Positions 4,930-17,493 of a DNA stretch of 64,000 nucleotides are shown here, one piece after another (position 1 is the first letter of the stretch; every line of letters starts with the position of its first letter). The notes beneath the pieces are model-generated. The model made no database searches, was not told where the DNA came from, and was given only the letters and a program-made list of their open reading frames with translations. Made by a program: the position numbers and the translations under genes. This DNA comes from Shigella phage SP21535: the sequence record PQ615101. One strand, written 5' to 3'.

Positions 4930-5604
4930 TGAGTACAGTTTTTAATACTAAACAGGTTGATGTTTTAAAAGAACCTATGTTTTTTGGTTCAGGTCTTGGA
5001 ATTGCGCGTTATGATATTCAACGACATAGGGTATTTGAAGAACTTATTGAACGTCAGCTCTCGTTTTTCTGGCGTCCTGAAGAAGTAAACTTGATGATGG
5101 ATGCTACTCAATTTAATAAGCTTCCTCAGTATCAACAAAATATTTTTACTAATAATCTGAAGTATCAATCATTACTTGATAGTATTCAAGGTCGTGCGCC
5201 GTCTGCTGTACTTATGCCATTGCTTTCAGACCCAAGCCTTGATACATGGGTTGCTACATGGACTTTTAGTGAAACTATTCACAGTCGTTCATATACTCAT
5301 ATCATGCGAAATCTTTATACTGATCCGTCAAAGGTATTTGATGAGATTGTATTAGATGAAGCTATCATGAAACGTGCTGAATCCATTGGACGTTATTATG
5401 ATGACGTTCTGATTAAAACCCGTGAATGGGAAAATGCTAAAGAATTTGTAGAACTAGCTAAAGAATCTCCTGATGCCGACTTTCGTTTAAACCGGGCTAT
5501 TAAGCAAGAAGCCGAAGCTAAACGTGCTTTAATGAAATCTCTTTACCTCTGTTTGCACGTTATTAATGCCTTAGAAGCTATTCGTTTTTATGTATCTTTT
5601 GCGT
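4929..5604 (+). CDS. nrdB: Ribonucleotide reductase beta subunit, exon 1
   Basis: Translation ends ...ALEAIRFYVSFA, the conserved NrdB helix; the frame is interrupted by the intron after gcgT at 5604. Confidence 0.85.
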
Positions 5605-5904
5605 AAAATGCGCCTTTAAACGGTAACGTTTATCGAAAACTCCTTTAATTGCTGGAAAGTCCTTTATAGGAAAACTAGCAGCCAAGGTTTTGCTTGCACC
5701 TTTAATTAGTATAATATGATTATACTTTTAAGAGGATGCACAATTGCAAAGCAAGGTTCAACGACTAGTCTTCGGACGTAGGGTCAAGCGACTCGAAATG
5801 GGGAGAATCCCTCTGGGATTGTGATATAGTCTGGTCTGCATAGTAATATGTAGCAGTTCATAAGAGAACGGGTTGAGAATTAGCGAGCTCAATCGAACAT
5901 AACG
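5605..5904 (+). other. Group I intron in nrdB, ORF-less (about 300 nt)
   Basis: Joining 5604 to 5905 restores the conserved NrdB sequence (VSFA-C-TFNFHKNMEIMEGNAK). The intron ends in G, shares core motifs with the td intron, and has no ORF of 60 aa or more. Confidence 0.8.
5688..5716 (+). promoter_or_regulatory. Middle-promoter-like element inside the nrdB intron (MotA-box-like ttTGCTTgcA, then TATAAT)
   Basis: Motif match only. It is followed by ATG and a 21-codon mini-ORF, possibly a remnant of a lost intron ORF. Confidence 0.25.
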
Positions 5905-9457: not shown

Positions 9458-10658
<1,201 letters not shown>

Positions 10659-11818: not shown

Positions 11819-12153
11819 TGAATTTAACTGATATAATTGATAATTGTCTTGAAAATGATACTGGTGATCATAGAGCGCTTGACTCTGAAACAGCAAAGTT
11901 CATTAGAATAACTTTAATGAATGATACTCTGGTGAATAGTATTCATCCTTCTGTGTATGATGCTATTATTGTGACGAAGTATCCAGTTGAGCTTCACAAA
12001 AAGATGACTGGCGCAGTTTTTATTGATAAGAAAAACCGCTTTAAAGATGGGCAGAATATAATTAGTTCTGTTATTAAAAGTATAACTAAACTTCGTCACG
12101 AAATTTATCGTGTTGAAACTGCTAAATCTGCTTATCTGGTGATTATGAAATGA
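11815..12153 (+). CDS. Hypothetical protein (112 aa)
   Basis: Overlapping ORF in an operon. Confidence 0.55.
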   Translation: MMNLTDIIDNCLENDTGDHRALDSETAKFIRITLMNDTLVNSIHPSVYDAIIVTKYPVELHKKMTGAVFIDKKNRFKDGQNIISSVIKSITKLRHEIYRVETAKSAYLVIMK

Positions 12154-12731
12154 AAGCGAGTACAGTACTTCAAATTGCATATTTAGTATCACAAGAATCA
12201 AAATGTTGCTCCTGGAAGGTAGGAGCAGTAATTGAAAAGAATGGACGTATTATTTCTACTGGATATAATGGTTCTCCGGCAGGTGGTGTGAACTGTTGTG
12301 ATTATGCTGCTGAGCAAGGTTGGTTGCTGAATAAACCTAAACATACTATCATTCAAGGTCATAAGCCTGAATGTGTATCGTTTGGTTCAACTGATCGTTT
12401 TGTCTTGGCGAAAGAACATCGTAGCGCTCACTCTGAATGGTCGTCTAAAAATGAAATTCATGCTGAACTAAATGCGATTTTGTTTGCTGCACGAAACGGT
12501 TCTTCAATTGAAGGTGCTACTATGTATGTAACACTTTCTCCTTGCCCAGATTGCGCAAAAGCGATAGCTCAATCTGGTATTAAAAAGCTGGTTTATTGCG
12601 AAACATACGATAAGAATAAACCTGGCTGGGATGATATTCTGCGAAATGCAGGTATTGAAGTGTTTAATGTTCCTAAGAAAAACTTGAATAAGTTAAACTG
12701 GGAAAATATCAACGAATTCTGTGGTGAATAA
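12150..12731 (+). CDS. cd: dCMP deaminase
   Basis: 193 aa; cytidine/deoxycytidylate deaminase zinc motifs (HAELNAI...PCPDC). Confidence 0.95.
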   Translation: MKASTVLQIAYLVSQESKCCSWKVGAVIEKNGRIISTGYNGSPAGGVNCCDYAAEQGWLLNKPKHTIIQGHKPECVSFGSTDRFVLAKEHRSAHSEWSSKNEIHAELNAILFAARNGSSIEGATMYVTLSPCPDCAKAIAQSGIKKLVYCETYDKNKPGWDDILRNAGIEVFNVPKKNLNKLNWENINEFCGE

Positions 12732-13332: not shown

Positions 13333-13668
13333 ATGTCTGAAGTACAACAGCTACCAATTCGTGCTGTCGGTGAATATGTTATTTTAGTTTCTGAACCTGC
13401 ACAAGCCGGTGATGAAGAAGTTACAGAATCAGGACTTATTATCGGTAAACGTGTTCAAGGTGAAGTTCCTGAATTGTGTGTAGTTCACTCTGTTGGTCCT
13501 GATGTTCCTGAAGGTTTTTGTGAAGTTGGTGATTTGACTTCTCTCCCAGTTGGTCAAATTCGAAATGTTCCTCATCCTTTTGTAGCTCTGGGTCTTAAGC
13601 AGCCAAAAGAAATTAAACAAAAATTTGTTACCTGTCACTATAAAGCTATTCCGTGTCTTTATAAGTGA
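13333..13668 (+). CDS. 31: Co-chaperonin for GroEL (GroES-like) required for major capsid protein folding
   Basis: 111 aa, [61 protein letters not shown]... Confidence 0.95.
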
Positions 13669-13815
13669 TATAAATAATAATATGAATTGGGTGTCGGAAT
13701 AATAAGTTAACCGAACAATTCTATGTGGTAGTCTACAACTGAGAGATCTGTCGAAAGAAGATGAAATTCAGAAGAACGTGACTACCGAGTTTTAATCTCT
13801 AACGAGAATTTTTAA

Positions 13816-14064
13816 ATGATTAAACAATTACAACACGCTCTTGAACTGCAACGAAACGCATGGAATAATGGTCACGAAAACTATGGCGCATCTATTGATG
13901 TTGAAGCCGAAGCTCTTGAAATCCTGCGTTATTTCAAACATCTGAATCCTGCTCAAACTGCACTAGCTGCTGAGCTTCAGGAAAAAGATGAACTTAAATA
14001 TGCTAAGCCTTTGGCTTCTGCTGCGCGAAAAGCAGTTCGTCACTTTGTGGTAACACTGAAGTAA
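13816..14064 (+). CDS. rIII: rIII lysis-inhibition accessory protein
   Basis: 82 aa, MIKQLQHALELQRNAWNNGHENYGASIDVEAEALEILRYF... Confidence 0.9.
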   Translation: MIKQLQHALELQRNAWNNGHENYGASIDVEAEALEILRYFKHLNPAQTALAAELQEKDELKYAKPLASAARKAVRHFVVTLK

Positions 14065-14462
14065 TTTATTGGAGATTCACTGCCTTAGTGTGAGCTAAAA
14101 TCGAGGAGCCGTCGAACTGTCTGATTAATGATTTGCGAATCATTATAGTTTTAAGACCCCGGCAGTTTTACGGTGTACCTCTTGAATGTTATTCTTATAG
14201 CGGCAAGTGCATGCTACCCCGAGGTGATGGCCAATCGGGAGTACGCCTCAAGGCCTATATATCCATCAGCATATATCTTATCCTCGAGAAATCGAACCCG
14301 GAACCTTTAAGCTAACGGTGTGCAACAGATAAGAGCTATAAGGTATGATGACGGGTTTATGGTTATCCTGGTCGTTAAATATTCAAAAACCTATATTCCC
14401 CGTGAGGGCTTGCGCAGGCAATGCCAATAAGTCCTGCATTTTCATTTAAAAGAGAATTTATA

Positions 14463-14639
14463 ATGGCAAAACAAGCTAAAGCAAAGAAAGCAGTTGAAAA
14501 GAAAGTTGGTGATTCTAAACGCGCTGGTTACAAGCGTGTGTCGAACTCTCGTATCAATCAAACTGTTGAGAAGATCATGCGCCGAGCACGTGCGGTTCTT
14601 CGAGATGATGCTTCTCGTTTTGGTAAGCAGAAAGCATAA
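14463..14639 (+). CDS. Small lysine/arginine-rich protein (58 aa)
   Basis: MAKQAKAKKAVEKKVGDSKRAGYKRVSNSRINQTVEKIMRRARAVLRDDASRFGKQKA; preceded by an AT-rich RBS region and followed by a strong terminator. Confidence 0.5.
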   Translation: MAKQAKAKKAVEKKVGDSKRAGYKRVSNSRINQTVEKIMRRARAVLRDDASRFGKQKA

Positions 14640-14644
14640 GTTGA

Positions 14645-14675
14645 GGACTCCTTCGGGAGTCCTTTTTTATTTTCC
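14645..14675 (+). terminator. Rho-independent terminator (ggactccttcgggagtcc plus T-run)
   Basis: Perfect 7-bp stem with tetraloop followed by TTTTTTATTTT. Confidence 0.7.
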
Positions 14676-14692
14676 AAAGATTGCACAAAGTT

Positions 14693-14722
14693 GTTTACAG
14701 TATGGTTCCTTTGTGATAGTAT
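14693..14722 (+). promoter_or_regulatory. Early promoter-like element (GTTTACA -35, TAGTAT -10)
   Basis: Sigma70-like hexamers about 18 bp apart, directly downstream of the terminator. Confidence 0.4.
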
Positions 14723-14900
14723 TATCTTACACAAATGCATATTTTGAAGCAGCGATCCAAAACAAGGGCTTTCGTGATGCATTACAAGCCTCGAAAGGAA
14801 AAGTTTTGAAGCACAGCATGGCTAGTGGTCTAACAAAAGATGATACAATACTAACCGAAGCTGAATTTATTGATGTGTTAAACCTATTAAGAGACGCTCT

Positions 14901-15764
14901 ATGAAGCCTACTATTTTAACTGATATTGATGGAGTATGTTTAAGCTGGCAATCAGGCCTTCCTTATTTTGCTCAGAAATATAATCTTCCGTTGGAACATA
15001 TTTTAAAAATGATCCAAGATGAAAAATTTATTTCTCCTGGTAAACTTTTTAATTGTGATGAAGAACTTGGCGTCAAGTTAATTGAAAAATATAATCGTTC
15101 AGATTTTATTCGTTACTTGTCTCCATATAAAGATGCTCTGTGTGTAATTAACAAATTAAAAGAAGATTATAATTTTGTAGCTGTTACAGCATTGGGTGAT
15201 TCTATTGACGCTCTGTTGAATCGTCAATTTAATTTGAATGCTCTTTTTCCTGGTGCCTTCTCAGAAGTAATGATGTGCGGTCATGATTCTTCAAAAGAAG
15301 AGTTATTCAAAAAGGCAAAAGAGAAATATAACGTAATTTGTTATATTGACGATCTCGCTCACCACTGCGACCACGCGAGTGAAATATTAAATGTTCCTGT
15401 TTATTGGATGGCTCGAGGAGAACGTGACAATATTCCAAAAACTGCTCAGCGAGTTTATACATGGAATGATGTAGAAAATAAGCTTTTTTCACCAAAGGAA
15501 AATAAAGAAAGTTTTGATAGTGAAAAAGATATAAAAGATGTAATTGAGAAGATGGTTAAAAACGATTCTTTTCGTTGGAACACTACCTGGAGAACTCCTG
15601 GATTTAATCCGTATAATCCATATTATACACATCCATATAATCCATATTATACACACCCGTATCATATGAATCCATTCCATACGTGGAGTTATACCAAGCC
15701 TGGCGATGCAGGGTATTTTAATAAATTTACTAGTGGTGATAATATTTTCCAAGGAGCATTCTAA
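14901..15764 (+). CDS. HAD-superfamily phosphatase-like protein with a Pro/Tyr-rich repeat tail (T4 30.2-like)
   Basis: N-terminal ILTDIDGV (DxDG(V/T) HAD motif I) and a C-terminal NPYNPYYTHPYNPYYTHPYHMNPFH tail. Confidence 0.75.
   Translation: MKPTILTDIDGVCLSWQSGLPYFAQKYNLPLEHILKMIQDEKFISPGKLFNCDEELGVKLIEKYNRSDFIRYLSPYKDALCVINKLKEDYNFVAVTALGDSIDALLNRQFNLNALFPGAFSEVMMCGHDSSKEELFKKAKEKYNVICYIDDLAHHCDHASEILNVPVYWMARGERDNIPKTAQRVYTWNDVENKLFSPKENKESFDSEKDIKDVIEKMVKNDSFRWNTTWRTPGFNPYNPYYTHPYNPYYTHPYHMNPFHTWSYTKPGDAGYFNKFTSGDNIFQGAF
15612..15659 (+). repeat. 24-nt tandem duplication (2 copies) inside the HAD-like gene, encoding NPYYTHPY twice
   Basis: ataatccatattatacaca occurs twice with a 24-nt offset. 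Confidence 0.6.
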
Positions 15765-16033
15765 TGTTTGTTGTTCACACTATTTATGAAAATGAAGGTA
15801 ATACTACACGTGATTACGGTCACGTAAATCAATTTTTTAGATGCAATCCAGAATTCCGAGCTCAAAAAGACGAACGAATTTTTAAAAAATGTGTAGAGCA
15901 AGGTTTCATTTACGTCAAGCACTGGATGCAAGGAAATAAAGTTAGAACTACATATCATAGGTCTTTGCCTGAGCTTAATGATGAATTGATTTATAATAGA
16001 GCTGTAAACCAAACCTTGAAGGATGAGCAATGA
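15764..16033 (+). CDS. Hypothetical protein (89 aa), upstream of DNA ligase
   Basis: ORF overlapping both the preceding stop and the ligase start. Confidence 0.6.
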   Translation: MFVVHTIYENEGNTTRDYGHVNQFFRCNPEFRAQKDERIFKKCVEQGFIYVKHWMQGNKVRTTYHRSLPELNDELIYNRAVNQTLKDEQ

Positions 16034-17493
16034 TTCTTAAAATTCTGAATGAAATAGCATCTATTGGTTCAACTAAGCAGAAACAAGCAATTCTTGAAAA
16101 GAATAAAGATAATGAATTGCTTAAACGAGTATATCGTCTGACTTATTCTCGTGGGTTACAGTATTATATCAAGAAATGGCCTAAACCTAGTATTGCTACC
16201 CAGAGTTTTGGAATGCTGACCATTACCGATATGCTTGACTTCATTGAATTCACGTTAGCTACTCGGAAATTGACTGGAAACGCGGCAATTGAGGAATTAG
16301 TAGGTTATATCACCGATGGTAAAAAGGATGATGTTGAAGTTTTGCGTCGAGTGATGATGCGAGACCTTGAATGCGGTGCTTCAGTATCTATTGCAAACAA
16401 AGTTTGGCCAGGTTTAATTCCTGAACAGCCTCAAATGCTGGCAAGTTCTTATGATGAAAAAGGCATTAGTAAGAATATCAAATTTCCAGCCTTTGCACAG
16501 TTAAAAGCAGATGGAGCTCGGTGTTTTGCTGAAGTCCGAGGTGATGAATTAGATGATGTTCGTCTTTTATCACGAGCTGGTAATGAATATCTAGGATTAG
16601 ATCTTCTTAAGGAAGAGTTAATCAAAATGACTGCTGAAGCCCGCCAGATTCATCCAGAAGGTGTGTTAATTGATGGCGAATTGGTATACCATGAGCAAGT
16701 TAAAAAGGAACCAGAAGGCCTAGATTTTCTTTTTGATGCTTATCCTGAAATTAGCAAAGCTAAAGAATTCGCCGAAGTAGCGGAATCTCGTACTGCTTCT
16801 AATGGAATCGCCAATAAATCCTTAAAAGGAACCATTTCCGAAAAAGAAGCCAAATGCATGAAGTTTCAAGTCTGGGATTATGTTCCGTTGGTAGAAATAT
16901 ACGGTCTTCCTGCATTTCGTTTAAAATATGATGTACGTTTTTCTAAACTAGAACAAATGACGTCAGGATATGATAAAGTAATTTTAATTGAAAACCAAGT
17001 AGTAAATAACCTAGATGAAGCTAAGGTAATTTATAAAAAATATATTGACCAAGGTCTTGAAGGTATTATTCTCAAAAATACCGATGGATTGTGGGAAAAT
17101 GCTCGTTCAAAAAATCTCTATAAATTTAAAGAAGTAATTGATGTTGATTTAAAAATTGTAGGAATTTATCCTCACCGTAAAGACCCTACTAAAGCGGGTG
17201 GATTTATTCTTGAATCAGAGTGTGGAAAAATTAAAGTAAATGCTGGTTCAGGCTTAAAAGATAAAGCCGGTGTAAAATCACATGAACTTGACCGTACTCG
17301 CATTATGGAAAACCAAAATTATTATATTGGAAAAATTCTAGAGTGCGAATGCAATGGTTGGTTAAAATCTGATGGTCGCACTGATTACGTTAAATTATTT
17401 CTTCCAATTGCGATTCGTTTACGTGAAGATAAAACTAAAGCTAATACATTCGAGGATGTATTTGGTGATTTTCATGAGGTAACTGGTTTATGA
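16030..17493 (+). CDS. 30: ATP-dependent DNA ligase
   Basis: 487 aa; adenylation motif KADGAR (AQLKADGARCF) and OB-fold C-terminal region. Confidence 0.95.
   Translation: MILKILNEIASIGSTKQKQAILEKNKDNELLKRVYRLTYSRGLQYYIKKWPKPSIATQSFGMLTITDMLDFIEFTLATRKLTGNAAIEELVGYITDGKKDDVEVLRRVMMRDLECGASVSIANKVWPGLIPEQPQMLASSYDEKGISKNIKFPAFAQLKADGARCFAEVRGDELDDVRLLSRAGNEYLGLDLLKEELIKMTAEARQIHPEGVLIDGELVYHEQVKKEPEGLDFLFDAYPEISKAKEFAEVAESRTASNGIANKSLKGTISEKEAKCMKFQVWDYVPLVEIYGLPAFRLKYDVRFSKLEQMTSGYDKVILIENQVVNNLDEAKVIYKKYIDQGLEGIILKNTDGLWENARSKNLYKFKEVIDVDLKIVGIYPHRKDPTKAGGFILESECGKIKVNAGSGLKDKAGVKSHELDRTRIMENQNYYIGKILECECNGWLKSDGRTDYVKLFLPIAIRLREDKTKANTFEDVFGDFHEVTGL

Follow-up and report, generated by a model that had tools for sequence, protein, structure and literature searches.

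Several described systems offer points of comparison for a non-coding RNA in a T4-like phage. T4 itself encodes rnaC and rnaD, the species 1 and 2 RNAs. The purine and lysine riboswitches have a junction closed by helix P1, adjacent arms held parallel by loop–loop pairing, and invariant unpaired nucleotides. Among ribozymes, the hairpin ribozyme has a perfect four-way junction, and in the VS ribozyme (~150 nt) a kissing loop positions an internal loop for docking. GOLLD and ROOL, which are 400-800 nt long and included in Rfam, combine an elaborate conserved fold with a link to phages; they were found by comparative analysis and their function is unknown. In T4-type phages, PeSLs are short conserved non-coding modules that mark points of modular shuffling (PMC2839356, PMC4122927). 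Here we analysed a 64,000-nt stretch (the window) of Shigella phage SP21535 (record PQ615101), a T4-like phage of the genus Tequatrovirus. The interval 14065-14462 is the intercistronic spacer of its two-gene rIII-30.9 transcription unit, and the 146 nt at 14195-14340 on the + strand, hereafter the core, almost certainly form a structured RNA. We rate this RNA as a new family, within a wider category of orphan phage-associated structured RNAs that has precedents.

Compensatory changes were already visible in a five-sequence alignment of the core, after which covariance model R1 was built; the model gave an alignment of 28 distinct sequences, from which the pairs were counted. The fold comprises 45 base pairs in eight helices, with 97.6% of the cells paired, and is arranged as arms around a perfect four-way junction that has zero unpaired nucleotides. 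Its parts are as follows.

14195-14340, + strand: the core, structured RNA of 146 nt (R1, 171.7 bits, E 1e-34)
14197-14201 with 14335-14339, + strand: P1, which closes the four-way junction
14202-14204 with 14253-14255, + strand: P2, in arm 1
14205-14212 opposite 14247-14252, + strand: 8x6 internal loop of arm 1, AAGUGCAU opposite CUCAAG, followed by P3, P4 and the apical loop L4
14225-14230, + strand: loop L4, UGAUGG, a kissing-loop partner complementary to 14263-14268
14256-14275, + strand: arm 2, hairpin P5 with loop L5
14263-14268, + strand: loop L5, CCAUCA, the other kissing-loop partner
14276-14282 with 14328-14334, + strand: P6 of arm 3, which carries P7, P8 and a linker
14284-14295, + strand: P7 of arm 3, with a GAAA loop at 14288-14291
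14296-14321, + strand: P8 of arm 3, with the 15-nt loop L8, GAACCUUUAAGCUAA, at 14301-14315
14322-14327, + strand: linker GCAACA of arm 3

Compensatory changes on both sides occur at 31 of the 45 pairs. No column shuffle out of 500 matched any of the observed pairing measures, and in a control with the partners slid by 1-3 columns pairing fell to 25-42%. The core helices contain 54 G·U cells compared to one A·C cell, and this asymmetry identifies the + strand, the transcribed sense strand, as the one that folds. A mutual-information scan showed covariation between one position of P4 and one of P5 (columns 31 and 87), and loops L4 and L5 were found to form a 6-bp Watson-Crick kissing loop, with all six pairs present in 28/28 distinct sequences. 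Six co-varying L4/L5 combinations occur (CGAUGG/CCAUCG, UGAUGG/CCAUCA, CUAUGG/CCAUAG, CAAUGA/UCAUUG, UGCAUU/AAUGCA and UGUAUU/AAUACA), and non-cognate combinations give a mean of 3.0 pairs out of six. The kissing loop makes the core a compact pseudoknotted fold and not a string of hairpins. It also takes over, in part, from a 3-bp P4 helix and a final P5 pair that an initial model contained, which explains 12 apparently unpaired C·A cells at columns 82/87. Two other pairings were tried and dropped. An alternative P2 proposed by RNAalifold on a MAFFT alignment (GGCA/UGCU) gave way to GGC/GCC together with a P3 base helix that covaries (GCUAC/GUA.GC, GACAC/GUG.UC and GUUUA/UAAAC). A UGCA/UGCA tertiary pairing of AAGUGCAU with GUGCAAC was rejected, as its two sides are almost invariant and a U-to-G change in AAGGGCAU is uncompensated.

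The most conserved positions of the core are unpaired: the near-invariant parts are the 8x6 internal loop, the P8 loop and the GCAACA linker. The P7 loop is mostly GAAA, GUAA or GGAA, with UAAA, UAAUA or UUUA in some members. In SP21535 itself A14261 and C14270 form an A·C mismatch in P5 where the closest relatives have A-U, with T at the equivalent of 14270, and this single base accounts for the 99.3% identity of many database matches. Copies of the core from other genera share 72-91% identity with that of the window, compared to 65-77% for cd, 31 and rIII in the same genomes. Judged from these alignments, the core is under strong purifying selection and not decaying.

A protein-coding gene or a decayed open reading frame (ORF) was ruled out. 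The ORFs of 14065-14462 are short (25-60 aa, with TTG, GTG or ATG starts), homologues of the central part (28 distinct) have stops in all six frames of nearly every sequence and differ in length by amounts that are not multiples of three, and the substitutions in the helices are compensatory. The original prediction, made from the letters of the window, had likewise seen no credible ORF here, and it had described the interval as visibly richer in G+C than its surroundings. The enrichment is real but modest: G+C is 42.2% in the spacer and 36.0% in the window, which places the spacer in the top 4.6% of 398-bp windows, and the 146-nt core, at 47.3%, is in the top 1.2%. The flanking genes rIII (41.4%) and 30.9 (43.5%) are similar to the spacer.

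The pattern of substitutions also bears on the idea that conservation acts on the DNA, as a replication origin, recombination hotspot, protein-binding site or mobile element, or that the core is acquired DNA without function. Such an idea draws on the cassette-like presence and absence of the core, on flanking modules (H, C1 and PeSL-like, described below) that are shuffled between genomes, and on an 'ori type 2 repeat' annotated near 30.9 in one record. Against it, 31 compensatory pairs and loop–loop covariation are the signature of a folded single strand, and G·U outnumbers A·C by 54:1 in a strand-specific way that agrees with the transcriptional orientation. The core has neither terminal inverted repeats nor target-site duplications, tandem repeats are also absent, and each genome has a single copy; an R1 search with filters off found no second copy in the 64-kb window. 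We consider a DNA-level explanation barely credible, as it is already largely refuted by the covariation and the G·U asymmetry. An earlier suggestion of a decayed mobile element fails on the same absence of repeats and on the purifying selection.

To place the core among known families, we compared 14065-14462 with Rfam 15 (4227 models), which gave no match at gathering thresholds or at E<=10, and the homologous core loci gave no Rfam match at E<=1. The same scan works on this DNA, as it found two group I introns at other sites of the window. These introns, on the + strand at 1-164 (truncated by the window edge) and 5588-5853 (RF00028, 50.7 and 69.1 bits), are probably the td and nrdB introns, judged from gene order. 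Neither the window nor five related loci contain a tRNA or tmRNA according to ARAGORN, in agreement with the original prediction that no full tRNA is present. The minus-strand T-loop-like motif that it pointed out, GGGTTCGATT, does exist at 14291-14300, where it is complementary to the 3′ half of P7 plus the first bases of P8; the hint of a tRNA-like minus strand is contradicted by the G·U pairs, according to which the + strand folds. Literature searches, both by topic and with the sequence, returned no description of the core; subscription journals lay outside their coverage, so an earlier mention may exist.

Comparison with the systems introduced above shows partial likenesses. Judged from annotation, rnaC and rnaD are similar in being phage-encoded, non-coding, ~120-140 nt long, present in T4-type phages and without established function. 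They differ in lying in the tRNA-cluster locus, outside the window, and in having tRNA-like ends, and T4 has both but does not carry the core. R1, run with filters off on the T4 tRNA/rnaC/rnaD region, reached at best 8.3 bits (E 0.44), at a site on neither rnaC nor rnaD. Neither GOLLD nor ROOL matches here; the core is much shorter than either and was detected solely in Enterobacterales phages. As with PeSLs, modules that have been shuffled border the core, and 30.9 is followed by a terminator and promoter of PeSL type. However, PeSLs consist of a promoter and a simple stem–loop in many copies per genome, whereas the core is a complex pseudoknotted fold conserved as RNA structure, single-copy in 64 kb and without a match to the promoter consensus. 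A ToxI-like type III antitoxin array does not fit either, since Tandem Repeats Finder detected no tandem repeats in 13900-14700.

The purine and lysine aptamers resemble the core in their P1-closed junction, loop–loop-paired neighbouring arms and invariant unpaired nucleotides. In contrast to those riboswitches, the core has no Rfam riboswitch match and no constant downstream gene or expression platform, and its junction leaves no nucleotide unpaired, so a binding pocket cannot sit there. The perfect four-way junction recalls the hairpin ribozyme, and the kissing loop and size recall the VS ribozyme; these likenesses are an architectural lead only, since Rfam matches and the catalytic loop sequences are absent. 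By this analogy, the core might be a self-cleaving ribozyme of a new class that would cut the rIII-30.9 transcript, uncoupling the two messages or making defined RNA ends. It is a P1-closed intergenic cassette that is present or absent between close relatives, and small ribozymes come and go likewise in phage genomes. In such a hairpin/VS-like architecture, the kissing loop could position the conserved internal loop, with a second unpaired region free for docking. We nevertheless regard self-cleavage as quite unlikely, because no Rfam ribozyme matched at E<=10, inspection of the alignment revealed no known catalytic core sequence, and 146 nt is large for a self-cleaver.

We then examined the distribution of the core. 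BLASTN against 50,697 phage records, a search also proposed at the outset, matched the spacer in 993 and the entire spacer in 179; no match to the core was obtained by blastn in 5,426 complete E. coli genomes. The window-type core is present in 406 phage records and a divergent subtype (73-81 bits with R1) in ~20 more, which include Slopekvirus, Cronobacter GAP161 and Yersinia JC221, giving ~425 carriers in total. With R1 the core is recovered from 34 of 39 sources, scoring 73-180 bits, and none is found in T4, RB32 or three chance pattern hits. Cores with 79-95% identity occur in Jiaodavirus, Karamvirus, Roskildevirus, Mosigvirus, Gaprivervirus, Kagamiyamavirus and Serratia phages. All of these have it between rIII and 30.9, with flanks that cannot be aligned. 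Exact- or degenerate-pattern scans of IMG/VR and metagenomes add T4-like contigs only. Other candidates from these scans were discarded: loci L052-L060, from further IMG/VR scans, are G+C-rich coding DNA rejected by R1, and L038 (metagenome scan) and L048/L049 (genome scan) are chance matches.

The core occurs in three genomic contexts, in all of which it lies just downstream of a co-directional ORF. In the first, found in at least eight genera, it is in the rIII-30.9 spacer and starts 6-130 nt past the rIII stop. In the second, represented by the divergent subtype of K41P2 and JC221, it ends the uvsY-side operon and faces the convergent uvsW; further non-coding sequence and a bidirectional terminator lie 3′ of the core, with no conserved downstream ORF. 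The third context is the 76-kb Grimontviridae phage PKM.Lu.22.1, in which a stop codon is followed by the core, hairpin H, a strong terminator and a gene for an extracytoplasmic function (ECF) sigma factor. K41P2 and JC221 also share a further conserved non-coding segment of ~145 nt 3′ of the core (79% identity; 2596-2739 of locus L024 and 2620-2761 of locus L028). It has no conserved ORF and no Rfam match, ends at the bidirectional terminator and is absent from the window. In JC221 the non-coding DNA at the core locus extends to ~700 nt.

These contexts weigh on the possibility of a cis-acting leader, in which the core, as a riboswitch-like aptamer or as an operator bound by a protein, would control translation of, or read-through into, 30.9 or another downstream gene. 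The P1-closed, multi-helix, aptamer-like fold with invariant unpaired nucleotides is what a structured aptamer requires. The core precedes 30.9 in at least eight genera, with the Shine-Dalgarno sequence sequestered in a covarying hairpin, and the order of core, strong intrinsic terminator and sigma-factor gene in PKM.Lu.22.1 resembles an attenuator. However, K41P2, JC221 and a further locus (L032) have no conserved ORF downstream of the core and the next gene is convergent, so a constant 5′-leader position is not found. Nor is there a conserved expression platform competing with P1, as the distance from P1 to the 30.9 start varies from ~5 to 120 nt and the modules in between are re-ordered. 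The downstream genes (30.9, a sigma factor or none) are unrelated, and T4, with no core in the same spacer, still expresses 30.9. A cis-acting leader is thus an unlikely explanation, although one with specific points in its favour.

Its position past a stop codon would also suit a passive stability or processing element in the 3′ untranslated region, which would set the half-life of the upstream message as a block to 3′-to-5′ exonucleases or as an RNase entry site. The core always lies ~6-130 nt past the stop of a co-directional ORF, and it sits close to the operon's 3′ end in K41P2 and JC221. For such a role, however, a simple G+C hairpin would suffice, and the near-invariant unpaired nucleotides, the kissing loop, the conservation above that of neighbouring genes and the selective transfer of the exact cassette to another phage family would all be left unexplained. 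We consider a purely passive element very unlikely.

The core is absent from T4, T2 and RB32 and present in only part of Tequatrovirus. The rIII-30.9 spacer of T4 (288 bp, non-coding) has the same flanking modules: T4 retains the left (14066-~14190) and right (~14343-14462) parts, and ~40 unrelated bases replace the core, while RB32 has neither the left part nor the core. The ~40-nt T4 segment (GCGTCAGAAAAGTGTTATCTGTGTAAGTCTTGG type; ~1630-1670 of locus L006) is also found in Mosigvirus ATK47 at the core position (~790-830 of locus L062). As it is conserved across two genera, its sequence suggests an alternative allele and not a decayed remnant. PKM.Hi.22.6, a sibling of PKM.Lu.22.1 with 98% identical flanks, does not have exactly the P1-to-P1 segment and is otherwise the same at the site, and the more distant phage 7-11, with the same layout, likewise does not have the segment. 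The insertion in PKM.Lu.22.1 added zero protein genes and its junctions show no duplication. The core therefore behaves as a horizontally exchangeable DNA cassette that was acquired by an unrelated phage. Horizontal acquisition had been one of three options in the original prediction, and it holds, both for the indel between the two Grimontviridae siblings and for the partial presence in Tequatrovirus. The accompanying idea of a replacement of the T4 30.x ORFs does not, since T4 has the same spacer and the loss of 30.3-30.8 is a separate deletion downstream of 30.9.

The reading we favour, although tentatively, is that of an autonomous binding RNA: a decoy, a sponge or an aptamer. We propose that 14195-14340 (+) is a self-contained structured RNA of ~146 nt, transcribed within the rIII-30.9 message, whose compact fold would be an autonomous functional unit acting by binding, either in trans or on the fate of its own transcript. 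It would not be a regulator tied to a single neighbouring gene, as suggested by the three unrelated gene neighbourhoods, the shifting position relative to module C1 and the transfer of a bare cassette without a protein gene. The partner may be a host protein, a component of RNA processing or defence, or a small molecule, common to Enterobacterales hosts and not co-evolving with the phage. Supply by the host or a small-molecule nature is suggested because T4-like and 7-11-like phages share only Enterobacterales hosts, and a lack of co-evolution because the unpaired nucleotides are near-invariant across genera.

Several points weigh against this proposal. Binding to a host partner is proposed by exclusion and from the conservation pattern. 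In most genomes the core lies upstream of 30.9, with the ribosome-binding site buried in a conserved hairpin, and it may act in cis there. High conservation could partly mean recent exchange between phages and not per-base selection. Finally, the core is dispensable in laboratory hosts, since T4, T2 and RB32 do without it. A bolder and doubtful extension of the binding-RNA proposal is that a new RNA class, traded between phage families as a minimal P1-to-P1 cassette, has its first member in the core, which would be a natural ribozyme of a new kind or else an RNA sponge or decoy, free of protein, that would neutralise a host factor such as a defence sensor, a nuclease or a signalling nucleotide.

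The core is not the only conserved element of the locus, as the rIII-30.9 spacer strings together several small conserved RNA modules. The covariation of H, C1, C2 and the ribosome-binding-site hairpin was judged by eye from alignments. Besides the core, the spacer contains the following.

14070-14096, + strand: module H, hairpin CACUG-CCU-UAGUG (14078-14090) with conserved flanks, once per locus
14126-14195, + strand: AT-rich hairpin TAATGATT-TGCG-AATCATTA (14126-14145), then TAGTTTT, then promoter-like TTTACG-N17-TATTCT (14167-14195), read from sequence
14350-14373, + strand: module C1, hairpin GACGGG...CCUGGUC with conserved loop UUUAUGGUUAU, from alignments
14398-14408, + strand: module C2, hairpin CCCC-GUGA-GGG, then CUUGCG; also in T4, RB32, PG7, Merci, K41P2 and JC221
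14414-14437, + strand: stem GCAGG...CCUGC (14414-14418 with 14433-14437), with inner GGC-AAU-GCC, GGCAATGCC, at 14417-14425
14439-14456, + strand: hairpin UUUUC...GAGAA, which would sequester the 30.9 Shine-Dalgarno sequence, identified by eye

Module H is accompanied by GGAG motifs at 14071-14074 and 14105-14108, and its stem covaries (CACUG/UAGUG compared to CGCUA/UAGUG). It is next after the core in both JC221 and PKM.Lu.22.1, Grimontviridae phages that lack the core have it natively, and it may be the homology patch through which the core was transferred. The 26-nt module (AGGUGAUUCGCUACCUUAGUGCGGCU type) is nearly unchanged between T4-like phages and the 7-11/phiEco32-like Grimontviridae (L027 2644-2683, L063 393-432 and L028 2551-2589).

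The module at 14126-14195 is restricted to Tequatrovirus and Mosigvirus, T4 and ATK47 included. From its sequence it resembles the PeSL terminator–promoter cassettes, which mediate modular shuffling in T4-type genomes and have the promoter consensus TTTACW-N17-TAYWAT (PMC4122927); a corresponding function would be inferred from this likeness, and TTTACG-N17-TATTCT scores under the threshold of the promoter scan. We rejected it as a promoter of the core, because the start would fall in or after the 5′ strand of P1, in conflict with the covariation of P1. Together with the lack of room for a promoter in Karamvirus and Roskildevirus, where the core begins 6-17 nt past the rIII stop, this conflict indicates that the core is co-transcribed with rIII.

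Downstream of the core, C1 is also present in T4, and its stem changes include GACGUGG/CCAGUC, GUCGUAG/CUAGAC and GUGG/CCAC. It lies upstream of the core in Jiaodavirus, where the order of the two is inverted relative to other genera. The stem at 14414-14437 is limited to Tequatrovirus and Mosigvirus, and a second conserved motif, motif 2, takes its position in other genera. Equivalents of the 14439-14456 pairing are UCUCC/GGAAGA in PG7, Merci and SP1, CCUC/GAGG in Cronus and UCCA/UGGA in EcS1. The hairpins named in the original prediction are those at 14398-14408 and 14414-14437. They are present but minor, lie outside the conserved core and occur in T4 too, and the GNRA-type loop seen in C2 is not conserved, since relatives have UUGA, UUAG, GAAA or UUUG, and Cronus has GCC-UUCGA-GGC. 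The idea of a structured RNA was thus right, as the covariation is very strong, but it had been placed downstream of the true feature.

Motif 2 is a structured motif at 13729-13787 (+), once per locus, upstream of rIII. Its closing stem covaries (GGUAGUC/GACUACC here, GGGAGC/GCUCCC or GGCGA/UCGCC elsewhere) and encloses an invariant asymmetric internal loop, UACAAC opposite GAAGAACGU, together with a variable, GAAA-looped apical hairpin. Compensatory changes were found in 8 of its 16 predicted pairs, and it has no Rfam match. It sits just upstream of the rIII start in Tequatrovirus, T4 and RB32 included, and of the 30.9 start in Jiaodavirus, Karamvirus and Roskildevirus. Separately, the sole other exact GAAGAACGT in the window is at 9888-9896, and this 9-mer with one mismatch has 27 matches compared to 13 expected.

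The genes around the spacer are in the order cd (12150-12731), 31.2, 31.1, 31 (13333-13668), rIII, spacer, 30.9, a 30.3 remnant, 30.2, 30.1 and DNA ligase 30 (16030-17493), and early and middle transcription run along the + strand. The immediate neighbours of the spacer are as follows.

13669-13676: late-promoter sequence TATAAATA (T4 type), upstream of rIII, annotated as a promoter in phage Lutter
13816-14064, + strand: rIII, lysis-inhibition accessory protein, the upstream cistron (ORF aligned to annotated rIII of RB32, T4, LZ9 and Lutter), with its stop codon at 14062-14064
14463-14639, + strand: gene 30.9, a basic protein of 58 aa whose function is not known, the downstream cistron (ORF, annotated in RB32 and LZ9), with its start codon at 14463
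14643-14664 or 14643-14673, + strand: intrinsic terminator that closes the rIII-30.9 unit (terminator scan; annotated in Lutter and ATK47)

The 30.9 product matches phrog_1427 (unknown function) and nothing in Pfam. Downstream of its terminator is a PeSL-type early promoter, TTTACA-N17-TAGTAT at 14694-14722, and then, from ~14728, the final 58 codons of gene 30.3 (97% identity to residues 95-152 of RB32 30.3). The terminator and promoter run straight into the end of 30.3, so compared with T4 and RB32 this phage has lost genes 30.8 to 30.4 along with the first two-thirds of 30.3. At the position of 14640-14904, ~1.8 kb of extra sequence is present in the closest relative, phiC600P9.

The T4-like coliphages are among the most studied viruses, and the core is still unannotated or mis-annotated in hundreds of their genomes. 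It was probably never noticed because it is absent from T4, T2 and RB32-type phages. Short 'hypothetical protein' coding sequences are called across it, such as Merci gp117 (49 aa), and the adjacent gene 30.9 is mislabelled '1,4-alpha-glucan branching enzyme, GH-13-type' in many public records. The core merits an Rfam family and the correction of the spurious coding-sequence annotations. A compact pseudoknot, near-invariant loops, conservation above that of genes and mobility on its own are traits of RNAs that were later shown to be riboswitches, ribozymes or protein decoys, and natural pairs with and without the core exist in this phage and T4, and in PKM.Lu.22.1 and PKM.Hi.22.6. If the core does act on a host factor, it would give these phages an RNA-only tool for counter-defence or host takeover, with no phage protein needed.

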